Notes under the pieces: generated by a model
The model's input: only the letters and a program-made list of their open reading frames with translations
The model's database searches: none
Told to the model about the DNA's origin: nothing
Translations under genes and position numbers: made by a program
Assembly: GCA_027729925.1 (NCBI GenBank)
Contig: JAQCEB010000005.1
Location: forward strand, 1 to 38,476
Direction of reading: 5' to 3'
DNA from: Actinomycetota bacterium
GTDB lineage: Bacteria > Actinomycetota > Acidimicrobiia > Actinomarinales > Actinomarinaceae
DNA length: 38,476 nucleotides
Shown: positions 63 through 35,996 of the stretch, one piece after another
Numbering within the stretch: position 1 is the first letter of the stretch
Layout of the letters: each line of letters starts with the position of its first letter

Positions 63-1151
63 CTAAAAATCTACTTTTTGTTCCCAATTTCTATCAGAAT
101 GTCCAAAATGAGAAAATAAAGTATCTTTTGTATAATCAACATCAAGTAAATTTAATCTTTCAATAATTGATCCTGGTTTCATATCAAACTTACTTACAAA
201 ATCTTGCAAAACTTTATCCTCAACTTTTTGAGTATCGAATAAGTTGATGCTTAATTCGTAAGGATCTGATTTACCAATTGCATAACTAACTCTAACTTGA
301 CATTTATCTGCTAATTCATGCATAACTATATTTTTTGCCAAATGTCTTGCTGCATAAGCAGCGGATCTATCAACCTTACTAGGATCCTTACCAGAAAACG
401 CACCACCGCCAACTGGAACTGTTGGACCGTATGCATCAACGACAATTTTTCTTCCGGTTAATCCTGTATCTCCTGCAGGCCCACCTTTAACAAATGATCC
501 AGAAGGATTTAAGTCTAATTTGTAATTAAACTCAATTACTTGACTAACAAGATTTGAAACAGTTTCTTCTAACTCACTAATATTTATGTTTGGTTGATGT
601 TGAGTTGAAACAACAACTTTTATTACTTCTCCACCAGTTGTTACTTGTACTTTTGAATCCAAATCTAAGTTCTCATCCGAATTTTGAACTGCCCATAATT
701 TCTGCTGAATTTGACGAGAATATTCAAAAGTTTTAGGCATAAAATTACTTGTTTCATTACTAGCAAATCCAACCATGATACCTTGGTCTCCAGCTCCTAA
801 ATCTTGATCATCTTCTACTGCTGAGCGAATCTCTTCAGATTGTGGAGTCAGTACATTTAAAATAGAAAGTTTGTTTAAATCAAAATCAAAAAAGCTGGTT
901 TTAATTGTTTTACTAAGAGCTAACTTAACAATGCTGTTAATTTTTTCGTCATCCATTCCAGCTATTTCACTAATTTCTCCTCCAACGACAACAAGTCCAC
1001 CTTCATGGGTTCCTGTCAGAAAAGTCTCAACAGCAACTTTTGATTTTTTATTTGTCTTTAAAGCTTCAGTTAAGACAGAATCCGAAATAAAATCTGCAAT
1101 TTTATCAGGATGTCCTGGCGAAACAGTTTCAGCGGTTGCAATTTTTTCCAT
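63..1151 (-). CDS. metK: S-adenosylmethionine synthetase
   Basis: GHPDK, GAGDQG, STQH, GLTGRK and GGGAFSGKDPSKVDRSAAY motifs. Abuts the metE stop codon. Confidence 0.97.
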   Translation of the reverse strand: MEKIATAETVSPGHPDKIADFISDSVLTEALKTNKKSKVAVETFLTGTHEGGLVVVGGEISEIAGMDDEKINSIVKLALSKTIKTSFFDFDLNKLSILNVLTPQSEEIRSAVEDDQDLGAGDQGIMVGFASNETSNFMPKTFEYSRQIQQKLWAVQNSDENLDLDSKVQVTTGGEVIKVVVSTQHQPNINISELEETVSNLVSQVIEFNYKLDLNPSGSFVKGGPAGDTGLTGRKIVVDAYGPTVPVGGGAFSGKDPSKVDRSAAYAARHLAKNIVMHELADKCQVRVSYAIGKSDPYELSINLFDTQKVEDKVLQDFVSKFDMKPGSIIERLNLLDVDYTKDTLFSHFGHSDRNWEQKVDF

Positions 1152-3407
1152 TTATAATTTCTCCTTAGCTTTATTCGTTGCATCAACCATATTAGTTAAG
1201 CTTTCTTTAACTTCTGGCCAGCCTCTTGTTTTAAGACCACAATCTGGGTTAATCCAAATTTTATTCAAGTCTAAGCTATTTATGAGTTCTCCAACCCTAT
1301 TTTCCGCATCAACGCCTTGAAGTACAAGTGGTGAGTGAATGTCGTAAACTCCTGGACCGATAGCTCCTCTGTATTTTTCTTTTAAATTAGGATTTACAAG
1401 TTCCATACCGCTTCTTGAAGCTTCTATTGAAAGCACGTCAACATCTAATGCATTGATTGCATCTAAAATTTCATCAAATTCTGAGTAGCACATGTGTGAA
1501 TGAATTTGAGTAGTAGTTTCAACTCCCGAGGATGCAAGTTTGAAAGAATTTACTGCCCAATCTAAATATTCATCTTTATATTTTGAATTAAGTGGCAAGC
1601 CTTCTCTAATTGCTGGTTCATCGATTTGAATTATTTTTATATTATTTTTTTCAAGGTCAATTACTTCGTCTCTTAAAGCTAATCCAATTTGATAAGCAAC
1701 ATCTTTTTTAGAGATATCATCTCTATAAAAACTCCATTGTAGAATCGTTACTGGACCAGTTAACATTCCTTTCATATTCTTTTTAGTTAAGCTCTGAGCA
1801 AAAACTGACCAATCAACAGTCATTGATTTAGGTCTATGAACATCGCCAAATATAATCGGAGGTTTTACGCACCTACTGCCATAACTTTGGACCCAACCAA
1901 ATTTTGAAAATGCAAAGCCTTCTAGTAGTTCTCCAAAATATTCAACCATGTCATTTCTTTCAGCTTCACCATGAACTAAGACATCGATTCCTAAATTTTC
2001 TTGAAACTCAATAGTTTCAGAAATAATTTGTTTTAAGCCATCATTGTATTCATCAATAGAAATTTCTCCGGATTTAAATTGCTTTCTCAAATTTCTTGTT
2101 TTGAGAGTTTGAGGAAAAGATCCAATAGTTGTTGTTGGTAGCAAAGGTATATTTAACGCTTTGGATTGTTTTTCTAATCTAACTTCTCTATCTTCACTTC
2201 TAATAAAATCTTCATCGGATAATTCAGAAACTCTACTCCTAACACTACTTACAACTCTTCCAACTAGTGCTTTGTCGGCAGTTAATCTTTTGCTTTCATA
2301 TTCCATAATTTCTTTTAAATCATTATTATTTGTTAAAGATGAATTGAGGATTCTTAATTCATCTAGTTTTTCTTCAGCGAAAGATAAAATATTTTTTAAA
2401 TTGATATCAAGACCATCTTCATTTTCAAGACTATACGGTGTATGCAACATTGAACACGAACTAGAAATTGAAAAGTTATCAATTCCTAACCCAATTAAAT
2501 TAGAAATCTTCTCATCAAGATTACTTTTCCATATTGTTCTACCGTTTATTAGTCCTATCACAACGTGTTTTTTTAAGGAAATATTAACTATTTCATCTTG
2601 TGAGAAACCTTCATAACAAAGATCTAGATGTATAGACTCAATATTTGAATCTAATATTTCATCTAAAAAACCTTCATACTTTCCAAAATAACCTAAAAGA
2701 TGTATTTTCAAATTAGATTTTTGAATCAATAATTTAAGAGAACTAAAAGCATCATCATTTACCATATGATTTCCGACACCTACACAACCTTCGTCTAGTA
2801 AGACTTCTTTGAATCCAATTTCTTCAAGCATTCTAAATAACTCAAGATAGGCATTAACAATTTTTTGTAGTTTGTTATCGTCTATTCCTTTTTCTTTAGC
2901 TAGCGTAAGTAAAGTTGCTGGACCAATAATCTTAGGTCTGCAATTAAAATTCTTAGATTTTGCTAAATCTAATTCATATTTAAATCTATAAATAGTAGGT
3001 TGAAAATCAAGAGACCAATCAATTTCTGGGACTAGATAGTGATAATTTGTATCAAACCATTTGGTCATATCAAGTGGGGGTTCGTCTTTTTCATTAACCT
3101 TTCCACCTCTTGATGCTTTAAAATATGTTTCTAGATTTTCATGATTTGTATAACCAAATCGTTTTTGGGGAATTCCAAGATGAGTTACAGTGTCAAGAAC
3201 TTGATCATAAAATGAAAAATCTCCAGCTAAAACAGTATCTGCACCATTCTTAGATTGAGTTTCCCAATTATTAGTGATCAGATTGTCAGATACCTCAAAA
3301 ACATCTTTGAGCGTTGAATCCCCTCTCCAATACTTTTCTACAATCCACTTGTATTCTCTATTCTTTCCAACTCTTGGGTATCCAATAATATTTATTTTAT
3401 TCGTCAT
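1152..3407 (-). CDS. metE: Cobalamin-independent methionine synthase (two-barrel MetE)
   Basis: GYPRVG..RE.K, TKWFDTNYHY, PTTTIGSFPQT, HGEAERNDMVEYF, WVQSYGSRC and the Zn ligands HMC and NPDCGLKTR; 751 aa. Confidence 0.98.
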   Translation of the reverse strand: MTNKINIIGYPRVGKNREYKWIVEKYWRGDSTLKDVFEVSDNLITNNWETQSKNGADTVLAGDFSFYDQVLDTVTHLGIPQKRFGYTNHENLETYFKASRGGKVNEKDEPPLDMTKWFDTNYHYLVPEIDWSLDFQPTIYRFKYELDLAKSKNFNCRPKIIGPATLLTLAKEKGIDDNKLQKIVNAYLELFRMLEEIGFKEVLLDEGCVGVGNHMVNDDAFSSLKLLIQKSNLKIHLLGYFGKYEGFLDEILDSNIESIHLDLCYEGFSQDEIVNISLKKHVVIGLINGRTIWKSNLDEKISNLIGLGIDNFSISSSCSMLHTPYSLENEDGLDINLKNILSFAEEKLDELRILNSSLTNNNDLKEIMEYESKRLTADKALVGRVVSSVRSRVSELSDEDFIRSEDREVRLEKQSKALNIPLLPTTTIGSFPQTLKTRNLRKQFKSGEISIDEYNDGLKQIISETIEFQENLGIDVLVHGEAERNDMVEYFGELLEGFAFSKFGWVQSYGSRCVKPPIIFGDVHRPKSMTVDWSVFAQSLTKKNMKGMLTGPVTILQWSFYRDDISKKDVAYQIGLALRDEVIDLEKNNIKIIQIDEPAIREGLPLNSKYKDEYLDWAVNSFKLASSGVETTTQIHSHMCYSEFDEILDAINALDVDVLSIEASRSGMELVNPNLKEKYRGAIGPGVYDIHSPLVLQGVDAENRVGELINSLDLNKIWINPDCGLKTRGWPEVKESLTNMVDATNKAKEKL

Positions 3408-3418
3408 TTAGCCTTCTT

Positions 3419-4288
3419 TCATTTTTTAAATTTTTCATCTAGATTTTTATAAATTTCTTTAAAGGCTTTATATCTATTAAGTGTATAAAAATGAAGTCCA
3501 TCTACATTTTCTTCAATGAGTTCATTACACATTTCTGTTATATATTTAATTCCAAAAGATCTTTCTTGATCTTTTGAATTACATTGTTGAAAACCTTCAT
3601 GTAGCTTTTTAGGTAGTTTTATATCGCAAATTTTTGCAAATCTGATAGCTTGCTCATAACTTATTAAGGGCATAATGCCTGCATAGGTTGGAACGTAATT
3701 ATCAAGAACTTGTATTTTCTTTCTAAAATTTAAATATTCTTGAGAGTCAAAAAATAATTGAGTTGCTGAAAACAAACCTCCTTGGTCGACTTTTATTTTA
3801 TATGTTGAAATCGTTTGATAAATATCATCATCTTCAGGATGGCCTGTGGGAAAAGTTCCAAAACCTATTTTATCAATATTATTTTGTTTTAAATATGCAA
3901 TTAAATCACTTGCATATTCAAATTCACTATTCGTGCTTTCTAAATCATCAATATCCATTAAAAATTCATCTCTCGGACAATCTCCCCTTACAACCAAAAA
4001 TGAATCAATTCTATTTTCTAAATATGTATTAATAATTTTATCTACATCAGTTTTGTCTTTATCGCAACTAGTAATGTGAGCAACTATCTCTGAACGAGAA
4101 AATTTCCTAAAAATTTCAACAGCCCTAATTATTTCTCTATTCTTAGAAAATCCTGCACCATCAGTAAAGGATACAAATGCGGGATCAAAATCTGATAATT
4201 CTATTACTGATTTTTCAAATGATTCATACTCCCTCTCATTTCTAGGAGGGAAAAACTCAAATGATAACTCTAAATTTCTTCCAAACAT
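3419..4288 (-). CDS. metF: 5,10-methylenetetrahydrofolate reductase
   Basis: SFEFFPP, T.GAG, AHIT, RGD, TQLFFD and HFYTLN motifs. First gene of the met operon. Confidence 0.95.
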   Translation of the reverse strand: MFGRNLELSFEFFPPRNEREYESFEKSVIELSDFDPAFVSFTDGAGFSKNREIIRAVEIFRKFSRSEIVAHITSCDKDKTDVDKIINTYLENRIDSFLVVRGDCPRDEFLMDIDDLESTNSEFEYASDLIAYLKQNNIDKIGFGTFPTGHPEDDDIYQTISTYKIKVDQGGLFSATQLFFDSQEYLNFRKKIQVLDNYVPTYAGIMPLISYEQAIRFAKICDIKLPKKLHEGFQQCNSKDQERSFGIKYITEMCNELIEENVDGLHFYTLNRYKAFKEIYKNLDEKFKK

Positions 4289-4307
4289 AATTTAAACTCA
4301 TTTTGAA

Positions 4308-4394
4308 GAAAGGCTATTTTTTGCAGAATGCCACATTAACTTAGCACCTTGGATAGCCTTCCAGGTTGCTGAGGACTTAACCTCTCAAAATGTA
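4308..4394 (-). ncRNA. SAM riboswitch, SAM-I/IV variant class
   Basis: The minus strand reads acatt-ttga-GAGG ttaagt CCTC-AGCAACC tgga aggcta tcca aGGTGCT-aa-gtt-aatgt-g-GCA ttc TGC-aaaaaa-tagcct. This gives P1 (acatt/aatgt), a short P2, the SAM-clan core AGCAACC...GGTGCT (P3), no P4, a P5, and PK-2 between the L3 loop AGGCTA and downstream TAGCCT. It lies directly 5' of metF-metE-metK. Confidence 0.9.
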
Positions 4395-4399
4395 ATTTA

Positions 4400-9848: not shown

Positions 9849-11209
9849 GGCTGATCCTCTTCATTATTAAGATTTAATCTTAACTTGTTAAAATTAGAAT
9901 TTTCAAATCCAAATTCTTGTACTAAATTTTTGTATCCATTAAAAAATGTATAAATTCCTGTAACTAATATAAGCAATGCACTTGCCCTTAAAACAAATAG
10001 TACTCCATCAAATTTAAAAATATCTTTTGCAATGTTTGCTAAAAATCCTGATAAAAATACGGAGATTAATAATGAGATTCTTGCAATAGAATAAAAATTT
10101 CCAAACACTCTCCCTCTAAGCTCTTGCGAGGTAGTGCTTTGTAAGTAACTTAAAGTTAAAATATAAATTGTTCCTGAACCTATACCCGCAATAAAAATAA
10201 AAAATAAAATTGTTGAAAATTCATATGACGAAAAACTAAATATCAAAGATAAACCAGTTATTGTCATACTAATACCAATAAAAAACGGCACCCTGCTGAA
10301 ACTTGTTACGAAATAACTTAAAATTACCATCGTAAAAACTACTCCAAAACCAAAGGAAGCAATCATAAAACCATAGGAACTTTGAGTAAATTGTAAAGTT
10401 TGAGTTAAGTAAGAATTGCCAAGAACAAACAAAGCCCCTGCTCCTAATAGGCTGATTGATATTGATGTAGATACTGTTTTTAACTCTGAATTATTCAAAA
10501 AATATTTTATACCAATAGTTAAGCCTTTTAATACTGGTTGATTTTTCTTACTTTGAAATTTGTTTTGTGAACTTTTTAAAAATAATAACAAAATAATTGA
10601 TAACAGAAAAGTTAAAGCATCAATCAAGAAAATAATTGAACCATTCCAATTATTTCCTATCTTAATTAAAGATTGGAAGTAAAAAGAATCTGATAAAAAA
10701 CCAAATAGTAAAGATGCTAAAGGCAATGTAGCATAAGTTCCAATTGCAAAAAATGAGTTTGCCTTGACTAAATATTCATCTTTTACAACTTCTGGAACTA
10801 CAGCTTCTCTTGATGGTTGTCTTATTAATGAAAATATCTCTGAAACAAAATTTATTATGAAAAGTTGTAATAGTGATTCCGCAAAAAATAATAGAACAAC
10901 GACCAACATTCGTACACTATCGCATAAAAGCATTATGTTTTTTTTATTAAATCGATCTGCTAGTAAACCAGCAAAAGTTGAAAGTAAAGCTGGAATTATA
11001 CGAGCTATTACAGGGATTACTGCAGTAATTTCTGAGTTTCCATTTTTTGAACCAAAGTAACTTGCCAGAGCAACTGAAGCAAATAAAGTTCCCCAATCTC
11101 CAAAACTTGAAAGTGTGCCAGACCACCAAAGAATCGAAAATTGTGATTTTGAAAATATTTTTACTGAATTCATTCCTACAATAATCCTAATAACTCTTAC
11201 AAATGACAA
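9845..11209 (-). CDS. MFS transporter translationally coupled to tmk
   Basis: About 12 TM segments, GLLADRFNKK motif A and LRGRVFG; ATGA overlap with tmk. The true start may be ATG at 11173 rather than TTG at 11209. Confidence 0.88.
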   Translation of the reverse strand: MSFVRVIRIIVGMNSVKIFSKSQFSILWWSGTLSSFGDWGTLFASVALASYFGSKNGNSEITAVIPVIARIIPALLSTFAGLLADRFNKKNIMLLCDSVRMLVVVLLFFAESLLQLFIINFVSEIFSLIRQPSREAVVPEVVKDEYLVKANSFFAIGTYATLPLASLLFGFLSDSFYFQSLIKIGNNWNGSIIFLIDALTFLLSIILLLFLKSSQNKFQSKKNQPVLKGLTIGIKYFLNNSELKTVSTSISISLLGAGALFVLGNSYLTQTLQFTQSSYGFMIASFGFGVVFTMVILSYFVTSFSRVPFFIGISMTITGLSLIFSFSSYEFSTILFFIFIAGIGSGTIYILTLSYLQSTTSQELRGRVFGNFYSIARISLLISVFLSGFLANIAKDIFKFDGVLFVLRASALLILVTGIYTFFNGYKNLVQEFGFENSNFNKLRLNLNNEEDQP

Positions 11210-22901: not shown

Positions 22902-23991
22902 ATAAAGTAAGACTTAAACTTTCAGCAACTTCCTCAGAAAGTAATAATCCATTGTAAAGTTGTAGTGAACTATTTAAATTTGGATTATTTCTATACTTCT
23001 CAAACCAATCTTCTTCAAGCAAATGCCCCACATAATTCTGTAATGAATTAGAAAGTTCAATTGAAGATGTTTTAGGAACAGCTCCAGGGAGATTGGCAAT
23101 AGCTGATAATATAATTCCATTTCTATTTTCATATGGTTCAGAATGTGAGTTTGAAGCAACACCTTCGACACAGCCTCCTTGGTCAATTGCAACATCAATA
23201 ACAACTGACCCTTTTTGCATATGAGAAAGATCTTCATTTGTTATAACAACTGGAGGTCTTTTACCTGGAACTAATACGGCACCGATTAATAAATCTGCAT
23301 CTCTTATTGCTTTAGTGGCTTCTTGGGTATTACTCAGGTAAGTATTTATTTTATCACCATAGGTTTTTTTAAGACTTTCTAAAGTTTCACCCTTAATATC
23401 AATAGCATTTACTTTTGCTCCAATTTGTATTGATTTTTTAATTGAACTTTGACCTACTATTCCACAACCTACTACAGTCACAGTTCCATTTTGTTTACTA
23501 CTTATCGAAGATAGAAGTAATCCTTTACCCCCAGAATTAAATTCTAAAAATTGCATACCTTTTTGAACTGCAAGATTTCCTGCAATTTTAGACATTGGAA
23601 TTAATAATGGATATTCATCTTCCTCTTTAATCATCTCAGTGGCAATACCAGTTACTTTCAGCTCTAAAAGTTTTTTAGTTAGCATTAGATTTGAAGCTAA
23701 ATGTAAATAGCCAAATAAAACATGATCGGATTTAATTCTGTTGAACTCCTCTTCTTGAGGTTCTTTAACTTTACAAATTATCTCAGAAATTTCGTATAAC
23801 TCATCTGCTGTATTTACGATTTTTGCTCCCGCTTTTACATATTCTTCATCAGTAAATCCTGAACTAAGACCCGCATTAGATTCTACGAAAATATCGGCTT
23901 GACCAGTAAATTGTGTTATATGTTCGGGTATTAAGCTAACCCTTCCTTCGTCTTTTTTAACTTCTTTAGGAATGCCTAGTTTTTTAATCAT
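22888..23991 (-). CDS. ald: Alanine dehydrogenase
   Basis: GIPKE.K..E.RV, KVKEP, YLHLA, L.PMS.IAG, G.GIVG, GAVLVPG, DVAIDQGGC and AN.PGAVP.TS. Confidence 0.95.
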   Translation of the reverse strand: MIKKLGIPKEVKKDEGRVSLIPEHITQFTGQADIFVESNAGLSSGFTDEEYVKAGAKIVNTADELYEISEIICKVKEPQEEEFNRIKSDHVLFGYLHLASNLMLTKKLLELKVTGIATEMIKEEDEYPLLIPMSKIAGNLAVQKGMQFLEFNSGGKGLLLSSISSKQNGTVTVVGCGIVGQSSIKKSIQIGAKVNAIDIKGETLESLKKTYGDKINTYLSNTQEATKAIRDADLLIGAVLVPGKRPPVVITNEDLSHMQKGSVVIDVAIDQGGCVEGVASNSHSEPYENRNGIILSAIANLPGAVPKTSSIELSNSLQNYVGHLLEEDWFEKYRNNPNLNSSLQLYNGLLLSEEVAESLSLTLSKLI

Positions 23992-25105
23992 TACTTGGAA
24001 CAGTTTCTTGTAAATGCTTATCTAAGTATTTCATAAATGGTGTTCCGCCGGTACCTACAATATTTGAATTAGAGTTGTTTGTTAAAGATTGTTCAAATAT
24101 ATAAACTCTTGCATACTCAAGATGCTTGTTACGAAAGATATGTACTTGTTCAATTATTGAATTCAATATTTCAACATGAGAGTGGTCCAAATTTTTTACA
24201 ATTTCTTTCCTATTATTCATAGACCACTGATCTAATTCATTCAATAAGACTCTGTGCTCTTTTGGCATGTAGGTTCTCATTTCATCTAGATACTCTCTCA
24301 GTGGGTCGTTAGAGTGTGTTACCCCTAACAACGCATCTAGCATTGGCACAATAGAACTTTGTGCTCCTGTTTCACCTCTAAATGAAACAGGTTTGTTTCC
24401 GTACTCTTCAACTCCTTCATAAATTACTCCATTAGGAGTAGCTGGATTATTTTTCCAACCGAAAATATAAGGTCGAACTCTGTTGTAGTAGATGAAAGGA
24501 TCGCATTTTTCAGGCATTCTATTCATAATTTCATTTATTTTTTTTATACTATTTAAAGCAATTTGTAATTTTTCAATTTCAAATGAACCGTTAAAAAAAT
24601 AATCCTTCAAACTTCCTAGAATATGCTTTGCTTCATGTTCTATCGCTACATGAATCATGATGAACCAATCTTCGTCAACACCTCCTAAAAAATTTTGCAA
24701 AATTTCAATATTTTCAAGTTCAAAAGGTTTTTCTTTATTTAACAATCGCCAATTATTCAATGCATATGAAGCATATGAGAGGATTGGAGGCCTATCAAGT
24801 TGTTGAGCTATTTTATGCCAAGTTAACGCTATTTGTTCTGGAATAATATTTTCTTCATTTTTCTTACCCCACATATAAGCGTGGCCAATATAAGAATAAA
24901 GAAGCATAGCCCTTTCAAGTTGGCTAGAGTTTAAATTTGATATATCTTTATGAATTTCAAGTTTTAAAACACTTTCTTCTATCTGCTCATTGCCAAGTAC
25001 CTTAGGTAATTGATTAGCCAAATTTTCAACGTCTTCAAAGCCTTCAGGAAGATTTTCTGAAATTTCTTTTGGTATAAATCCCATATCTAAAATTTCTAGG
25101 TTCAT
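23984..25105 (-). CDS. Indoleamine 2,3-dioxygenase family heme enzyme
   Basis: RPPILSYA..AL.NW, DEDWF..IHVAIE, YNRVRPYI.GWK, GETGAQSS, MR.YMP..HR, proximal His in FRNKH, and GTGGT. Confidence 0.9.
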   Translation of the reverse strand: MNLEILDMGFIPKEISENLPEGFEDVENLANQLPKVLGNEQIEESVLKLEIHKDISNLNSSQLERAMLLYSYIGHAYMWGKKNEENIIPEQIALTWHKIAQQLDRPPILSYASYALNNWRLLNKEKPFELENIEILQNFLGGVDEDWFIMIHVAIEHEAKHILGSLKDYFFNGSFEIEKLQIALNSIKKINEIMNRMPEKCDPFIYYNRVRPYIFGWKNNPATPNGVIYEGVEEYGNKPVSFRGETGAQSSIVPMLDALLGVTHSNDPLREYLDEMRTYMPKEHRVLLNELDQWSMNNRKEIVKNLDHSHVEILNSIIEQVHIFRNKHLEYARVYIFEQSLTNNSNSNIVGTGGTPFMKYLDKHLQETVPSND

Positions 25106-25166: not shown

Positions 25167-26660
25167 ATGGGAAAAAAATTTTTTTTAATATTAGGTAATC
25201 AATTATTTAATCCTTCAATCCTAAAAAAACTAAATTGTGATGAGGTATTTATGGCTGAAGATGAAGGTTTGTGTACTTATGTAAAACATCATAAATTAAA
25301 ATTATTGTTTTTTCTTACTGCAATGAGGGATTATAAAAACGAACTTGAAAATAATAATATTAAAGTTAACTACTTCAAGTTAGATGAAAGATCAGATTTT
25401 AAAAATTATGTTGATTTTTTTGTAAGTTATCTGAATAAAAGAAAAATTGATAAAATTCATATGTTTCATATTGAGGATAAATTTCTTGAAATTGAAATAA
25501 TAAATAAACTTCAAAAAAATAATATTTCTTTTCAAATTGAAAAAAACCCTAATTTTATATTTACCCCTGAGGAGTTCAACAGCTTTACTAAATCTACAAA
25601 AGTTTATCGTATGGTTTCTTTTTACAAACAATCAAGAACAAAATTAAATATACTTTTAGACGAAAATATGAATCCACTTGGTGGGAAATGGTCGTTTGAT
25701 GAAGAAAACAGAAAAAAAATTCCAAAAAATAAATTACTTCCCACAGAAATACAACATAAACCTAGTGTAAATTTGAAAGAAGTTAAAAACTTAATTTCAA
25801 AAAGGTTTAGTAAACATCCTGGAGAATTAGAAAATGTTTGGTTTCCTACAACTAGAAAACAATCCGAGCAACATTTAGATTTCTTTCTAGAAAAAAAATA
25901 TTTGCACTTCGGAGACTATGAAGATGCCGTAGTAGAAAATACAAATTTTTTATTTCATAGTTCAATAAGTCCAATGTTAAATGTAGGGCTTTTAGACCCA
26001 AATAAAGTGGTGAAAAAAGCCTTACGGTTTGGTAAAGAAAATAATATTCCTATCAATTCTATTGAAGGTTTTATAAGACAAATTATTGGTTGGCGAGAAT
26101 TTGTTAGAGGAATTTATCAAGCAAAAGGAGAACTCCAATATAATTCAAATTTTTGGAATCATAACAATAAACTAAGTGAATCTTGGTATAAAGGAACTAC
26201 TGGATTAGAACCTCTTGACGACATAATAAAATCTGTTAACAAAGATGGTTATACACACCATATCCCTCGGTTGATGATTTTAAGTAATATTATGAATCTT
26301 TCGAGAATTCACCCAAAAGAAATCTATAAATGGTTTATGGAGATGTTTATTGATTCATCTGATTGGGTTATGGTACCCAATGTTTTTGGAATGGCAACAT
26401 ATTCGGACGGTGGTTTAATGTCAACAAAACCCTACACATGTGGTTCAAACTATATCTTAAAAATGAGTAATTATTCGAGAGGTGATTGGTGTGATGTTGT
26501 TGATGGTCTTTATTGGAAATTTACTGAAGACAATTTAGAATTTTATAAATCTAATCCACGACTTTCTGTATTGTCTAAAAATTTAGAAAGGATGAATCCC
26601 GAGAGAAAAAAAGATATCTTTCAAAAAGCTGAAAATTTTATTTCAAATAATACTAAATAG
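25167..26660 (+). CDS. PhrB/CryB-type prokaryotic (6-4) photolyase (COG3046), variant lacking the Fe-S cluster
   Basis: LILGNQLF, HH..K...F..AMR, GGKWSFD..NR, FG.YEDA, LFHS, EGFIRQIIGWRE, HHI.RLM and KPY....NYI.KMS.Y. Confidence 0.92.
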   Translation: MGKKFFLILGNQLFNPSILKKLNCDEVFMAEDEGLCTYVKHHKLKLLFFLTAMRDYKNELENNNIKVNYFKLDERSDFKNYVDFFVSYLNKRKIDKIHMFHIEDKFLEIEIINKLQKNNISFQIEKNPNFIFTPEEFNSFTKSTKVYRMVSFYKQSRTKLNILLDENMNPLGGKWSFDEENRKKIPKNKLLPTEIQHKPSVNLKEVKNLISKRFSKHPGELENVWFPTTRKQSEQHLDFFLEKKYLHFGDYEDAVVENTNFLFHSSISPMLNVGLLDPNKVVKKALRFGKENNIPINSIEGFIRQIIGWREFVRGIYQAKGELQYNSNFWNHNNKLSESWYKGTTGLEPLDDIIKSVNKDGYTHHIPRLMILSNIMNLSRIHPKEIYKWFMEMFIDSSDWVMVPNVFGMATYSDGGLMSTKPYTCGSNYILKMSNYSRGDWCDVVDGLYWKFTEDNLEFYKSNPRLSVLSKNLERMNPERKKDIFQKAENFISNNTK

Positions 26661-31347: not shown

Positions 31348-32232
31348 CTAATTAATTGGGTTAATTATTTTTAACTTTTTGAGGTATACATATATATATG
31401 TAATCCATAAAATATCTGCGGTTGCTAAATGTAGGATGCTGAGTGGAAGCACAATATTAGATAATACATTTAATATTCCTAAAGAAACTGAAAATAATAC
31501 TAAGTAAAATAATGGTTTTGTATTGATTCCAAAAGTTTTATGGATTTTTTTGCTCTGAACTACAAGTACATATGATAAAAACATTGAAAAAATTGGATGC
31601 AAAATTCTAAGTCTTGTGAGAAGTTCTGATGAACGATCAAAATCAGCAACTAGACCTTGAGTGAAAGACTCACTTGGATACAATACATCAGATAGTGCTG
31701 CGATTGAACCTGTTGCACCAGTCAAAAAAAACAAAATTCCTACAAGTTTAAAATTTAAATCAAAAAATCCATCTAAATTTTTTAAATCGAACTTTAAAAC
31801 AGCAAATAGAGTTGCATAACAGCCAAGTAAACCAAATGTGTTAACCAGATGTATTGGAACAGCTATAATCCTAGGGACTGAGCTGTTCATGCCGACCCAT
31901 TCATATAAAACAATTACTGCACCAATAGCAGCTTCTAGTAAAACAAAAAATGTTAATAGAACAATAATTTTTCTAATTAAATTTTGTTTAGGTAGATTAA
32001 AAGTTTTAGTAAATAAAATTAGTGTAATGATAAGTAGAAACCCGCTTATTGATCTATGTAGAAACTCAATAATCTCTGAAGTATCTTGAAGATTAGGAAT
32101 AATTTTTCCATTACATTTTGGCCAAGTTGAACCACAACCATCTCCAGAGCCAGTTGCACGAACAAATGCTCCAGCCAAAATTGAAACTATTGAAACAAAT
32201 AACCCTAATTTAACTAAAAAATAATTTTTCAA
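31348..32232 (-). CDS. ctaA: Heme A synthase (COX15/CtaA)
   Basis: G..VR.TGSG.GC..WP.C, E..HR, HL, HP and HL heme-ligand positions; 8 TM segments. Confidence 0.88.
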   Translation of the reverse strand: MKNYFLVKLGLFVSIVSILAGAFVRATGSGDGCGSTWPKCNGKIIPNLQDTSEIIEFLHRSISGFLLIITLILFTKTFNLPKQNLIRKIIVLLTFFVLLEAAIGAVIVLYEWVGMNSSVPRIIAVPIHLVNTFGLLGCYATLFAVLKFDLKNLDGFFDLNFKLVGILFFLTGATGSIAALSDVLYPSESFTQGLVADFDRSSELLTRLRILHPIFSMFLSYVLVVQSKKIHKTFGINTKPLFYLVLFSVSLGILNVLSNIVLPLSILHLATADILWITYIYVYLKKLKIINPIN

Positions 32233-32819
32233 AATAAAGCATCAATAATAAATACGACTGAATCCCAAAATAAGCTAAAAGATGTAACTATTATTACTAA
32301 AAACAAACCTAGCATTGCAAAAGTCTTAATATTTCTTGTAAAATAAAAGCCAATTTGGTTAGTGTCATATATATAGGGCATTTCTTTGTCTTTTAAACGC
32401 ATAATTTCTGATGGTTGACTTTGTTCCAAAGAAATAAATGTATCATCAATTTGATTTTCATAATTTTCACTTGATTTATTTAAGGTAGGGTTTTTTCTTT
32501 TAAACGAAGTTCTTACTCGGTCAAGTTTTGTATTTTTTAGATCAATTTTTTCTTTATTAACTTTAAATATGCTTTCCTCATAATTTCTATTTTGAACTTT
32601 ATTTTCAAAATTATTTTCGAAATTTTTTAATGATTTTGATATTTCTGTTCCTAAAAGACCTTCAAGAGCATTCAATACTTTGGAATCAGTAGGAAAACTA
32701 AGACCCGATTCCCATTTTTTAACTTCTTTTTGGTTAACTCCAGTAAATGAAGCTATTTGCTTATTAGACAAACCACGTTCATTTTTTAAATTGGTAAAAA
32801 TTTTACTAAAGTTATTCAT
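32229..32819 (-). CDS. XRE-family HTH protein with a C-terminal membrane anchor
   Basis: N-terminal ERGLSNKQIASFTGV....VKKWESG...P; hydrophobic C-terminus; ATGA overlap with ctaA. Confidence 0.75.
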   Translation of the reverse strand: MNNFSKIFTNLKNERGLSNKQIASFTGVNQKEVKKWESGLSFPTDSKVLNALEGLLGTEISKSLKNFENNFENKVQNRNYEESIFKVNKEKIDLKNTKLDRVRTSFKRKNPTLNKSSENYENQIDDTFISLEQSQPSEIMRLKDKEMPYIYDTNQIGFYFTRNIKTFAMLGLFLVIIVTSFSLFWDSVVFIIDALF

Positions 32820-32870: not shown

Positions 32871-32962
32871 GGAGGTGAATGAGCGCCTGGTGGGCTCCAC
32901 AGTCTTCAAAACTGTAGAAAGGTGTAATAATCTTTGGCAGGTTCGATTCCTGTCCACCTCCG
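32871..32962 (+). tRNA. selC: tRNA-Sec (anticodon UCA)
   Basis: GGAGGTGA/CCACCTCC acceptor stem with G discriminator; long D stem with TGGT loop; ACAGT-CTTCAAA-ACTGT anticodon arm; long variable arm (AAAGGT/ATCTTT); GCAGG-TTCGATT-CCTGT T arm. CCA is not encoded. Confidence 0.95.
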
Positions 32963-32997
32963 CTACTATATACTTTTTTAATGATTAATATTAAAAA

Positions 32998-33318
32998 ATG
33001 GACTCAAAAAAAGATATTCTTGAAAAAATAAATTTTGCACCAGCAGGTTTCAAAGTTTCACCAGGATGGCGTGTTGGACATTTGAAAGAAGAAACTATAA
33101 CAAAATCGGGTTTACTTGTTCCAGCAGGTAGTGAAAAAACTTCAGAAGCATTACCACTTATAGACGTAGATAGTGGTAAACAGTTCTGGGCGGTTGCAAG
33201 CGGTGCTTGGAAATTTATTTGGCCACCAAGTGGGAAAGTTGTATTGGCTGTTAGAGAATCTCAAATCATTGCTGAAGAAGAAGTTATTTCATCTCCTGAT
33301 AACGGAAACTATTTATAA
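32998..33318 (+). CDS. Divergent GroES/Cpn10-like small protein
   Basis: EETITKSGLLVP resembles the mobile loop, LPLIDVDSG resembles PLDVKVG, and VLAVRESQIIA resembles ILRESDILA. The roof hairpin segment is missing. Confidence 0.6.
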   Translation: MDSKKDILEKINFAPAGFKVSPGWRVGHLKEETITKSGLLVPAGSEKTSEALPLIDVDSGKQFWAVASGAWKFIWPPSGKVVLAVRESQIIAEEEVISSPDNGNYL

Positions 33319-33327
33319 AATTTATCT

Positions 33328-34644
33328 TTGAATCAACGAATTAACCCCAATCAGATCGATAGAAAATTATTAACTGTCTCAGATAGAGATATTTTTGTTA
33401 CAACTCAAAAAGCTCTATTGATTGGAATAATTTTAAAAAATGAAACTAGAGCTGATAAAGAAGAGTCTTTAAAAGAACTAGTTAACTTAGTCAAGACAGC
33501 TGGCTCAAACCCAACAATAATTCAAACAAAAAGAGTTGAGAGCATTGATCCAAAGACTTTTATTGGAAAAGGTTCAATAGCTGAATTGACTGATATTTCA
33601 GATGCTAATGATATAGATGTCGTCATTTTTGATTGTGAACTAAGTCCTAATCAACAAAAAGAGCTTCGTTCTATGTTTAAATGTGATGTTGTTGATAGAA
33701 CTGGTTTAATCTTAGATATTTTTGCTTTACATGCTCAATCTAAAGAAGCTCGCTTACAAGTAGAACTTGCTTTATCTATTTATCTTAAACCTCGTCTAGC
33801 TGGCCTTGGAAAAACATTGAATCAACAAGGCGGAGGAATTGGAACAAGGGGTCCAGGAGAAACAAAGTTGGAAACTGACAGCCGATTAATTGACAATAGA
33901 ATAAATAAATTAAAAAAAGATTTAAAAAAGATTTCAAAACAGAGAGAAGTTCAGTCAAGTTTGAGAAAAAAGAATAATACTCCATTAGTTTCTATCGTTG
34001 GATATACAAATGCAGGAAAATCTACCCTCTTAGAAAAAATAACCTCTTCAAAAACCTACGTTGCTAATGAGCTGTTTGCAACTGTGGATTCGTTACAAAG
34101 AGAATTAAAAATTGACGGTTTAAACGAACCAATAATTATTTCAGATACAGTTGGTTTTATACAAAACTTGCCAACCACACTTATTGAGTCTTTTAAATCT
34201 ACACTTACTGTAGTTAATGAAGCTAGCTTGTTAATTCATGTAGTAGATGCAGCTTCAGCACTACCAAGTATGCATATACAAACTGTGCATAGTATTTTGA
34301 AACAAATTAATAATCAAGTACCAGAAATATTAGTCTTTAATAAGATTGATAAAATTGATCAGGCATCCAAAAATTTTTTACTTGAAAAATTTAAAGATGC
34401 AATCTTTGTTTCTGCAATAGAAAATATAAATATTGATACCCTGATTCAAGAGATTACCGACAAAATTTTTGGAGATTTATTAAATGTAGTTGTATTAGTT
34501 GAACCTCATAATTTAGATAAAATTTACAAATTTGCTTCAATTTCTGATGTAAAAAACTCTGAAGGATTCTTAAAAGTAAATATTACAATTAGAAATCATT
34601 ATTTAGAAAAATTGATAACTAAAGACATTGTTAAACTTTTATAA
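33328..34644 (+). CDS. hflX: Ribosome-splitting GTPase HflX
   Basis: LSP.QQ, DR..LILDIFA.HA, GIGTRGPGETKLE, GYTNAGKS, FAT.D, DTVG and NKID. Confidence 0.96.
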   Translation: MNQRINPNQIDRKLLTVSDRDIFVTTQKALLIGIILKNETRADKEESLKELVNLVKTAGSNPTIIQTKRVESIDPKTFIGKGSIAELTDISDANDIDVVIFDCELSPNQQKELRSMFKCDVVDRTGLILDIFALHAQSKEARLQVELALSIYLKPRLAGLGKTLNQQGGGIGTRGPGETKLETDSRLIDNRINKLKKDLKKISKQREVQSSLRKKNNTPLVSIVGYTNAGKSTLLEKITSSKTYVANELFATVDSLQRELKIDGLNEPIIISDTVGFIQNLPTTLIESFKSTLTVVNEASLLIHVVDAASALPSMHIQTVHSILKQINNQVPEILVFNKIDKIDQASKNFLLEKFKDAIFVSAIENINIDTLIQEITDKIFGDLLNVVVLVEPHNLDKIYKFASISDVKNSEGFLKVNITIRNHYLEKLITKDIVKLL

Positions 34645-35996
34645 TGATGAATCAAATAGGATTAATAGGAATAGGTGTTATGGGAAGCAACCTAGCACTA
34701 AATCTTTCTGATAAAAATTTCAAAGTTAAAGTATTTAATAATTCTGATGAAAAAATTCAAAATTTAATCCAAAAAGACAAAAACAATAATATTGAAGGTT
34801 TTAATACAATTAAAGAATTAATTAAAAACCTAGAAAAACCAAGAAATTTACTTTTACTAGTTCCCTCTGGCGCTCCAACTTTTGAAGTCTCAAAAACACT
34901 TTTGGAGTTAATGGAGAAAGGTGATTTTCTAATTGATGCAGGGAATTCATATTTTGAAGACAGCATAACATTAGGAAAGCTTTGTAAAGATAAAGACGTA
35001 TCCTTCATAGGAATGGGTGTTTCTGGTGGTGAAGTTGGCGCTAGAACTGGACCAGCTCTCATGATCGGTTCAGAAAATCAAATACCAGATGAGTTAAAAT
35101 TTTTATTTGATTCAATTGCAGCAAAAAAAGATAGTGTACCTTGTTCTGGATACTATAAAGGAGCAGGTACTGGGCATTTTATTAAAATGATTCATAATGG
35201 AATTGAGTATGCAGAAATGCAAATTTTAGCTGAAGCATATTCAATTTTAAAATTTTCTAATTTTTCCAATTTTGAAGCATCTGAATTTTTTAGCAATCTT
35301 TCGAACAACAATCAGTCATCATATTTGATAGAAATTACCTCAAAAATTCTAAAAAAGGAAGTTAAGGAAAATTATATAATCGACAAAATAGATTCCGTAG
35401 CTAATCATAAAGGGACAGGAAAACTCACAATTGAAACTTCACTTGAACATGGTTTTCCGGTTCCATCTATTTATTCTGCTTTCAATGCAAGGGTTGAAAG
35501 TCATTATCAAAAACTATTTTCACTTGACGTTGATAAATTAGATAATCAAATAGACATTAGTAAGCTGAATAGTGCTATTTATTTTTCAAGATTGTCTTCA
35601 TTATTACAAGGATTGCTGTTTATAGAATTTTTAAGTGAACGCAATTCTTATAAAATAATGACAAAAAATATTCTAAGCAATTGGGCTGCAGGATGCATAA
35701 TACGATCTGAACTTTTAGCTGAATTATCTAATAACTGTGATAAAAAAGGTATGCTTGATAAAAACAAAGTTCAGAATTTATTAAATCTGTATTTAGAAGA
35801 CACTAAAGATGTTATTCGCCAAGCAATAAATTCAAATATACCTTTACATGTAATTACGTCATCGCTTAATTGGTATTTAAATTTATCTTCTAACACCAAT
35901 CCATCGAACTTAATACAAGCACAAAGAGATTATTTCGGTGCACACAAAGTTAAGTTAATTGGAAGTGAAGATTTTTTACACATTGACTGGGATTGA
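34644..35996 (+). CDS. gnd: 6-phosphogluconate dehydrogenase (decarboxylating), long form
   Basis: G.GVMG.NLALN, GMGVSGGE.GA, GHFIKMIHNGIEY, KGTG, W..GCIIRS and QAQRDYFGAH. Confidence 0.95.
   Translation: MMNQIGLIGIGVMGSNLALNLSDKNFKVKVFNNSDEKIQNLIQKDKNNNIEGFNTIKELIKNLEKPRNLLLLVPSGAPTFEVSKTLLELMEKGDFLIDAGNSYFEDSITLGKLCKDKDVSFIGMGVSGGEVGARTGPALMIGSENQIPDELKFLFDSIAAKKDSVPCSGYYKGAGTGHFIKMIHNGIEYAEMQILAEAYSILKFSNFSNFEASEFFSNLSNNNQSSYLIEITSKILKKEVKENYIIDKIDSVANHKGTGKLTIETSLEHGFPVPSIYSAFNARVESHYQKLFSLDVDKLDNQIDISKLNSAIYFSRLSSLLQGLLFIEFLSERNSYKIMTKNILSNWAAGCIIRSELLAELSNNCDKKGMLDKNKVQNLLNLYLEDTKDVIRQAINSNIPLHVITSSLNWYLNLSSNTNPSNLIQAQRDYFGAHKVKLIGSEDFLHIDWD

Follow-up and report, generated by a model that had tools for sequence, protein, structure and literature searches.

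In the solved complex with GroEL, GroES makes contact through its I25-V26-L27 triplet, and the phage T4 co-chaperonin Gp31 lacks the roof hairpin. Among the bacterial proteasome activators, Mpa/ARC and Bpa/PafE carry a docking motif and Cpa works without it, and there is only a partial understanding of the Pup-independent route that brings misfolded proteins to the proteasome. A C-terminal GQYL is reported to be required by Mpa and PafE/Bpa for opening of the mycobacterial proteasome, its glutamine being dispensable (PMC12288473, PMC6017811), and to enter the pockets between alpha subunits (PMC8223512). The discovery of Bpa is described as the outcome of a genome search for such a C-terminal motif, with a poorly conserved stretch preceding the conserved GQYL (PMC8223512, PMC4254994), and terminal GQYL-like motifs are taken as the canonical sign of 20S binding (PMC10149685). 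Here, we analysed a stretch of 38,476 nucleotides from Candidatus Actinomarina (assembly GCA_027729925.1, contig JAQCEB010000005.1, positions 1 to 38,476; hereafter the window), with a guanine-plus-cytosine (GC) content of ~31%, in which an open reading frame (ORF) of 106 codons lies between a tRNA-Sec gene and the pair hflX–gnd and is a real coding unit. Its product belongs to an unnamed family that in all likelihood consists of much-diverged Cpn10-fold proteins, and it ends in a G-x-Y-L tail. The Cpn10 fold may have been recruited here as a proteasome interactor.

The C-terminal tail and the predicted fold

The ORF and the segments of its product are as follows:

32998–33318, plus strand: ORF of 106 residues (ATG at 32998, TAA at 33316–33318), from an unnamed Acidimicrobiia family with a predicted Cpn10 (GroES)-like fold
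32998–33045, plus strand: residues 1–16, the 48 nucleotides before 33046; variable N-terminal extension, with predicted local distance difference test (pLDDT) values below 50 for residues 1–12; most relatives start 10–16 residues later
33046–33084, plus strand: residues 17–29; first strand with the motif G-W-R-V-G, counterpart of the first GroES strand; strand 24–29 in the model
33085–33141, plus strand: residues 30–48; GroES-type mobile loop, E-E-T-I-T-K-S-G-L-L-V-P-A-G, placed by hhalign; pLDDT below 50 for residues 32–48
33142–33276, plus strand: residues 49–93; tryptophan-rich beta-barrel core with five model strands, the last being V-R-E-S-Q-I-I-A
33277–33303, plus strand: residues 94–102; acidic variable linker that differs in sequence between clusters
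33304–33315, plus strand: residues 103–106; C-terminal G-N-Y-L, a G-x-Y-L form of the actinobacterial 20S-docking motif GQYL

Relatives were collected by a word-indexed search, which returned 103 protein clusters with 55–86% identity, all unnamed or hypothetical, and from a collection of species genomes, in which 273 of 345 candidate stretches encode a relative. Locus analyses were performed on the best 80 of these 273 stretches, of up to 20 kb each (labelled L001–L080), of which 27 are of Actinomarina type (31–34% GC) and 53 come from genomes with 61–71% GC. Residue conservation was assessed over 79 sequences.

After the last strand (...S-Q-I-I-A-E), 9–12 acidic, variable residues are followed by a conserved end; in the ORF protein, this acidic tail spans residues 94–106. 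Among the 99 clusters with a complete C-terminus, 83 terminate in GxYL (GQYL in 64, GHYL in 12, GNYL in three, GTYL in two, and GRYL and GLYL in one each), and the others in ...GQLPIMK (12), PLKK (1) or odd read-throughs (3). A Y-L end (xxYL) closes the protein in all 53 loci from outside Actinomarina, and G-[NT]-Y-L closes it in four of the 27 Actinomarina loci, the copy in the window being GNYL. Such an end was found in none of the ~708 other ORFs of the 53 loci. The mean share of the majority residue, which was 0.23 in the N-terminus (residues 1–16), 0.74 in the first strand (17–29), 0.77 in the loop (30–48), 0.86 in the core (49–93) and 0.60 in the linker (94–102), rose to 0.87 in the last four residues (103–106). 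This tail, the most telling feature of the protein, was missed by the first-pass annotation, which had been made from the sequence alone and had suggested, among other options, a repurposed ring protein coupled to ribosome rescue; the G-x-Y-L end points to the 20S proteasome, and not the ribosome, as the partner of such a ring.

The fold was approached through structure prediction and profile–profile comparison. AlphaFold2 yielded five models of the ORF protein with mean pLDDT values of 69.1, 68.2, 64.5, 39.0 and 37.9, the best of which comprises six strands; residues 98–106, like the two segments listed above, fell below 50 and are taken as disordered. When this model was searched against the PDB with Foldseek, the best 14 listed rows (ranks 1–16) were all of Cpn10 type (E 0.024–0.33, template modelling (TM) scores 0.41–0.52) and included human Hsp10, bacterial GroES/Cpn10 and T4 Gp31. 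Against BFVD, the best match had an E of 4.3e-3; 35 of the 50 listed rows carried a name, which was GroES, chaperonin or Cpn10 in 33. A second member, P0087, gave a model with a pLDDT of 69.4 and Cpn10-type chains at Foldseek ranks 1–8; for both models together, the best Cpn10/GroES matches covered E 0.004–0.3 and TM 0.4–0.57. The folds of SH3 and of the FASN ER domain appeared only lower in the lists, with low probability. In the ESM Atlas, the three clusters nearest to the ORF protein were viral and carried PF00166 (scores 0.85–0.86), which we treat only as a lead.

The family alignment was compared by hhalign with an alignment of 19 diverse GroES sequences, 14 of them from E. coli, plasmid and phage records and five from search hits. 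The score of 25.0 (P 0.0012, probability 18.9%) covered 63 columns, beginning at the loop and ending with the last strand; the reversed alignment scored 12.6, the best of 100 column shuffles 20.4, and none of the 100 reached 25.0. In this alignment, K30–P42 fell on E. coli GroES 16–28, with L39-L40-V41 on I25-V26-L27; I55–G60 fell on GroES L57–G62; and the strand ...VLAVRESQIIA fell on GroES ...EVLIMSESDILA. A 15-residue gap between L54 and I55, opposite GroES 42–56, corresponds to the roof hairpin, which was therefore considered lost, and A51–L54 lie opposite GroES G38–L41, so that the strand following the loop is kept. Within the family, G38, L39, L40, V41 and P42 are invariant, as are V26 and G27 of the first strand; conservation reaches at least 90% for G23, W24 and R25, and the loop stretch T-K-S-G-L-L-V-P is nearly invariant. 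The loop pattern was unique to this family among 730 neighbouring ORFs. Since the structure matches and the profile–profile comparison agree even though ordinary profiles fail, we conclude that the family very probably has a much-diverged Cpn10 fold.

These results bear closely on the first-pass annotation, whose GroES-like fold with a mobile loop and no roof hairpin was recovered by Foldseek with two models, in BFVD and by hhalign with its controls, and whose three GroES anchors, aligned by eye, were all reproduced by hhalign. It had also reported the GEVLAVG strand to be missing along with the hairpin, of which the hairpin is indeed deleted and the strand is retained. Its count of four tryptophans is exact (W24, W64, W71 and W75, the last three invariant), and the extensions it saw at both ends coincide with the variable residues 1–16 and the acidic tail. 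The likeness to the small ring protein Hfq that it had raised was abandoned: no Sm/Hfq chain stood among the listed Foldseek matches, no LSM-type Pfam match was obtained, and the model has no N-terminal helix.

Possible proteasome docking and competing explanations

On these grounds, we propose tentatively, and at somewhat less than an even chance, that the protein forms a ring of Cpn10 descent and serves the proteasome, without need of ATP, as a cap or adaptor. A Cpn10-derived subunit would have lost the roof hairpin, kept the flexible hydrophobic loop and gained the flexible acidic G-x-Y-L tail. Seven such subunits would assemble as in Cpn10, a ring suggested by the predicted fold only, leaving an open centre without a roof, and this ring would sit on the alpha ring, also seven-fold, of the 20S proteasome. 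The Y-L tails, for which docking on the 20S particle is likewise quite possible, would insert between alpha subunits by analogy with Mpa/ARC and Bpa/PafE, whose GQYL tails do so. Through its hydrophobic loops the ring would bind non-native proteins or touch GroEL, and the protein would be made together with HflX within a stress and quality-control operon. The proposal follows from the combination of a Cpn10-type ring and an alpha ring that are both seven-fold, a roofless open centre, and a tail that in most clusters equals the docking motif.

Proteasomes are reported to be nearly universal in actinobacteria (PMC4255298), and an origin in Acidimicrobiales is reported as probable for the Nitrospirae pupylation locus (PMC3511204). 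A complex of P0087, which ends in GQYL, with two copies of a proteasome alpha subunit, the Swiss-Prot entry PSA_ACIFD (232 residues), was predicted by ESMFold2, with an alignment supplied for P0087. The species code of this entry presumably denotes Acidimicrobium ferrooxidans. The interface score ipSAE was 0.33, 0.34 and 0.38 (median 0.34), compared with 0.00 for the best of three controls, and at least 23% of contacts were shared between the runs. The acceptance mark for ESMFold2 is reached by 116 of 157 solved complexes and by two of 215 mismatched pairs; at values of 0.60 or below, it is reached by only 18 of the 157 solved complexes, together with both passing mismatches. As complexes of GQYL ends with the 20S particle have been solved for both Mpa and Bpa, the pass may reflect memory, and the prediction raises the likelihood of proteasome docking only a little.

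Several observations weigh against this proposal. The ipSAE values amount to weak support, the prediction gave no interface that would place the tail in the alpha pocket, and PSA_ACIFD itself was modelled with a pLDDT of about 35–37 (at least 34), so that the fold of the partner is uncertain. The GQLPIMK end replaces the Y-L end in 23 of the 27 Actinomarina loci (L004 and L006–L027, at about 10300–10331), a switch that maps to a single event on the family tree (support 95/88); because this clade keeps the rest of the protein conserved, the core function does not depend on Y-L. Neither the scanned ORFs of the window nor the recurrent neighbours in the 53 loci include a proteasome gene, and the literature searched on proteasomes of Actinomarina and Acidimicrobiia yielded nothing bearing on the question. 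A GroES-like loop that hardly varies is more readily reconciled with binding to GroEL than with docking on the proteasome, and the linkage to hflX is left without explanation; a common regulation under stress, and not contact, may lie behind it. Finally, Bpa is reported in every actinobacterium that bears a 20S proteasome (PMC8223512), so the family would be an additional activator.

The strongest competitor is an alternative co-chaperonin or modulator of GroEL, in which a roofless heptameric lid would sit on the GroEL apical domains through the loop, leaving the top of the cage open, as in phage T4 Gp31, with the tail serving another purpose. We regard this as rather unlikely, even though the loop matches the GroES mobile loop residue for residue, with its hydrophobic triplet in register, has kept its five invariant positions while the remaining protein diverged past HMMER detection, and is predicted to be disordered, as in free GroES. 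T4 Gp31, moreover, is among the Foldseek matches (rank 13 with the ORF model and rank 4 with P0087). A GroEL partner exists in the class, given that groEL and groES are both reported in two copies from acidophilic Acidimicrobiia (PMC10490939). However, the gene never adjoins groEL or groES in the window or in the 80 loci, and no operator resembling the controlling inverted repeat of chaperone expression (CIRCE) was found within 400 nucleotides upstream in these loci, or anywhere in them at up to three mismatches. This explanation does not account for the conserved and exact proteasome-docking C-terminus. It should be added that proteasome docking and GroEL binding are not mutually exclusive.

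A second possibility is that the family and Cpn10 have no more in common than the shape of a small beta-barrel, or that their likeness arises from the modelling, and that an unrelated barrel binds some other partner through its loop and Y-L end. The evidence that would favour it, much of which also weighs against the Cpn10-derived ring, is as follows. No Foldseek match reached an E of 0.001 in either PDB or BFVD, and Pfam PF00166 was matched by none of the 79 members at E up to 10. The PHROGs GroES family was matched by two of the 79 (best E 0.081, not significant). Other sequence searches were negative as well: neither Pfam nor NCBIfam matched the ORF protein at E up to 1; the E. coli GroES comparison by BLASTP had an E of 6.8; phmmer and the family profile returned only chance-level matches among PDB sequences (best E 0.39 and 0.17), without Cpn10 via the profile; and tblastn of the ORF against phage records found nothing below an E of 0.9. 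The hhalign probability reported above is low, and a shallow alignment of 27 gammaproteobacterial GroES sequences gave just 16 columns with 1.15% probability. The AlphaFold2 models are confident only in part, with three of five at a pLDDT of at least 64 for the ORF protein and one of five above 42 for P0087, which leaves confidence in the fold moderate, and the viral Cpn10 lead was not reproduced with P0087, for which the ESM Atlas gave no usable match. Nevertheless, three different kinds of method agree on both family and register, the shuffled and reversed controls fall short of the real hhalign score, and other barrel folds rank only low in the lists, so that an unrelated barrel appears improbable.

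Gene order, family range and the rest of the window

The neighbours of the ORF within its putative transcription unit are the following:

32871–32963, plus strand: tRNA-Sec (anticodon TCA), found by ARAGORN and by Rfam RF01852 (73.5 bits), 34 nucleotides before the ATG of the ORF
33328–34644, plus strand: hflX, ribosome-splitting GTPase (TIGR03156, E 8.5e-123), with a TTG start 9 nucleotides after the stop codon of the ORF
34644–35996, plus strand: gnd, 6-phosphogluconate dehydrogenase (NF006765, E 2.5e-126), whose start overlaps the hflX stop

No terminator-like site was detected between the ORF, hflX and gnd, and we infer from this arrangement that the ORF and hflX are made together by co-transcription. 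A promoter scan found no sigma-70-like site on the plus strand from tRNA-Sec to the ATG of the ORF and one at 32765–32792, upstream of tRNA-Sec, which is possibly co-transcribed with the ORF; the 21 promoter sites in total are not a clear excess over shuffled sequences (15.7, standard deviation 3.9). A leaderless transcript headed by the ORF, deemed probable by the first-pass annotation, is a possibility on this evidence. Upstream of the ORF, on the opposite strand, are genes for a helix-turn-helix membrane protein, ctaA and a sigma-70 factor.

Of the 80 loci, 72 have hflX as the next gene downstream, in the same orientation; six have one opposite-strand DUF2079 gene in between, which accounts for the 1.5-kb insert of one clade and encodes a membrane protein; in one (L030) hflX is adjacent but divergent; and in one (L058) the contig ends. 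Further downstream, gnd and pepN usually follow. In most Actinomarina loci, including those with the GQLPIMK tail, the stop codon of the ORF abuts the hflX start. That the protein is instead a partner or regulator of HflX, a small ring or barrel that binds HflX or the ribosome and acts in ribosome splitting under stress, would agree with this adjacency and with its persistence in genomes of 31% to 71% GC, but gene order alone does not demonstrate binding, neither loop nor tail has a known link to HflX, and no HflX fusion was found in a search for longer proteins that is itself weak evidence; we consider this reading very unlikely.

The single longer protein from that search, P0245, has 269 residues and lies on a 1.9-kb contig of its own. 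Its last ~100 residues are an Actinomarina-type family copy and its first ~165 have no Pfam match; a chimaeric assembly or a mis-called frame is possible.

A long shot that would unite these elements is a seven-fold ring coupling GroEL, with its loops gripping the apical domains, to the 20S alpha ring, with its Y-L tails docked there. Proteins that fail to fold would pass through the open ring into the proteasome, a triage that would be linked to the rescue of ribosomes under stress by the joint expression with HflX.

No tRNA other than tRNA-Sec was found in the 80 loci, of which 45 contain it: every one of the 27 Actinomarina loci has it just upstream of the family gene, while 18 of the 53 others have it somewhere in the fetched stretch, from ~100 nucleotides to several kb away and on either strand. 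It thus recurs in the company of the family gene and hflX across the class. When 730 ORFs from the 53 loci were clustered, the recurrent neighbours were all housekeeping genes, comprising ROK, malic enzyme–PTA, HTH_31, PALP, a HAD/ACT protein, DUF255, sigma-70, CtaA and RskA_C; no chaperonin or proteasome gene was among these families. The HTH_31 protein recurred near the family gene in 21 of the 53. In the window, the divergent gene at 32229–32819 on the minus strand encodes a protein of 196 residues that begins with a helix-turn-helix and has a hydrophobic stretch at its C-terminal end; the gene is oriented away from the tRNA-Sec/ORF unit and overlaps ctaA by 4 nucleotides.

Scans of the window ORFs with Pfam and NCBIfam profiles revealed no groES, groEL or proteasome gene, and when the window and the 80 loci were searched by tblastn for E. 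coli GroES and GroEL, the best E was only 0.056; the absence of groEL from the window, asserted by the first-pass annotation, is thus upheld. Likewise supported are the conservation of the ORF in relatives, with 273 species genomes, the conserved order of ORF and hflX, and the undescribed status of the family, for which no name was obtained from Pfam, NCBIfam or PHROGs. Overall, the earlier interpretation is partly supported: it is borne out in the GroES-like fold, the lack of a nearby groEL, the hflX order and the unnamed family, and falls in the likeness to Hfq/Sm.

The family, which occurs in marine and soil Acidimicrobiia, is confined to records titled Acidimicrobiia or close to it, and all clusters with a stated taxon belong to this class; among the species genomes, the closest relative comes from an assembly of Candidatus Actinomarina, where the ORF protein is 93% identical. 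Identity of 55–67% persists across the divide between Actinomarina and the high-GC genomes, which argues for strong purifying selection. Copies in L067, L070, L074 and L076, titled "uncultured Acidobacteriota bacterium", nest among Acidimicrobiia on the tree, and their titles may be those of mislabelled bins. An exhaustive phmmer search of 1.84 billion representatives gave just 28 matches at E up to 0.001, of which six (P0112, P0114, P0118, P0120, P0122 and P0124) were discarded as spurious. Each is a long repeat protein from an unrelated Pfam family, such as CarboxypepD_reg or CHB_HEX_C_1, and their E values of 2e-11 to 3e-4 were built from sums of four to eight weak stretches. The family is therefore narrow and without distant relatives detectable by sequence. 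Whole-sequence phmmer E values can mislead where weak repeat matches are summed.

The remaining scanned ORFs of the window have housekeeping functions. Two further features were recorded:

4307–4398, minus strand: SAM-I/IV riboswitch (Rfam RF01725, 64.4 bits), upstream of metF-metE-metK (63–4288, minus strand)
23984–25105, minus strand, and 25167–26660, plus strand: adjoining genes of the indoleamine 2,3-dioxygenase family (PF01231, E 2.3e-78) and of a photolyase-related DPRP/FAD_binding_7 protein, in a streamlined marine genome

Comparison with described co-chaperonins and proteasome activators

In the literature searched, no GroES-like protein with a GQYL end was described, only a general review joining GQYL with GroES, and no GroES-like gene linked to hflX was found; on GroEL of Actinomarina and chaperones of Actinomarinales, the search returned nothing on point. 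If the proposed docking holds, a ring of Cpn10 fold that bears GQYL tails would add a type of cap not seen before on the proteasome, the first with a symmetry that matches the alpha ring, and would link the chaperonin fold to degradation. Even without a link to the proteasome, an undescribed roofless GroES paralogue fixed beside hflX bears on co-chaperonin diversification. Given a small family that is restricted to one class and whose strong conservation spans genomes of 31% to 71% GC, these claims are cheap to test by expression, sizing and pull-down.

With GroES/Cpn10 (PF00166, e.g. E. coli GroES), the family shares a similar size, a predicted beta-barrel, the register of the loop triplet and the last strand. 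It differs in lacking the roof hairpin and Pfam detection, in its four conserved tryptophans (W24 at 90% or above), its N-terminal extension and its acidic G-x-Y-L tail, and in adjoining hflX and never groEL. T4 Gp31 (PDB 1g31) is likewise a co-chaperonin of the Cpn10 fold that is hard to recognise by sequence and is among the structural matches; however, it is a phage protein that works with the host GroEL, identity in the structural alignments is 6–14%, and we know of no G-x-Y-L tail in it.

Chloroplast Cpn11/20/23 on the ClpP core (PDB 7ekq) was also among the Foldseek matches (ranks 24 and 31 with the ORF model, 8 and 34 with P0087). We take these chains to be co-chaperonin subunits on a protease ring, in which case a protease capped by a Cpn10-type ring would have a precedent, although in a eukaryotic, organellar setting, on ClpP instead of the 20S particle, and without a known Y-L tail. 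Mpa/ARC, the proteasomal AAA ATPase, has the same C-terminal GQYL docking motif with its penultimate tyrosine, but is a large hexameric ATPase that recognises Pup, whereas the family protein has no ATPase domain. The ATP-independent activator Bpa/PafE is reported to combine a C-terminal GQYL after a poorly conserved stretch with a small ring-forming subunit and a restriction to Actinobacteria (PMC4254994, PMC8223512, PMC12288473), all of which the family would share. Its ring, in contrast, is dodecameric, of another fold and not homologous, whereas the predicted Cpn10-like fold of the family would give a seven-fold ring matching the alpha ring.

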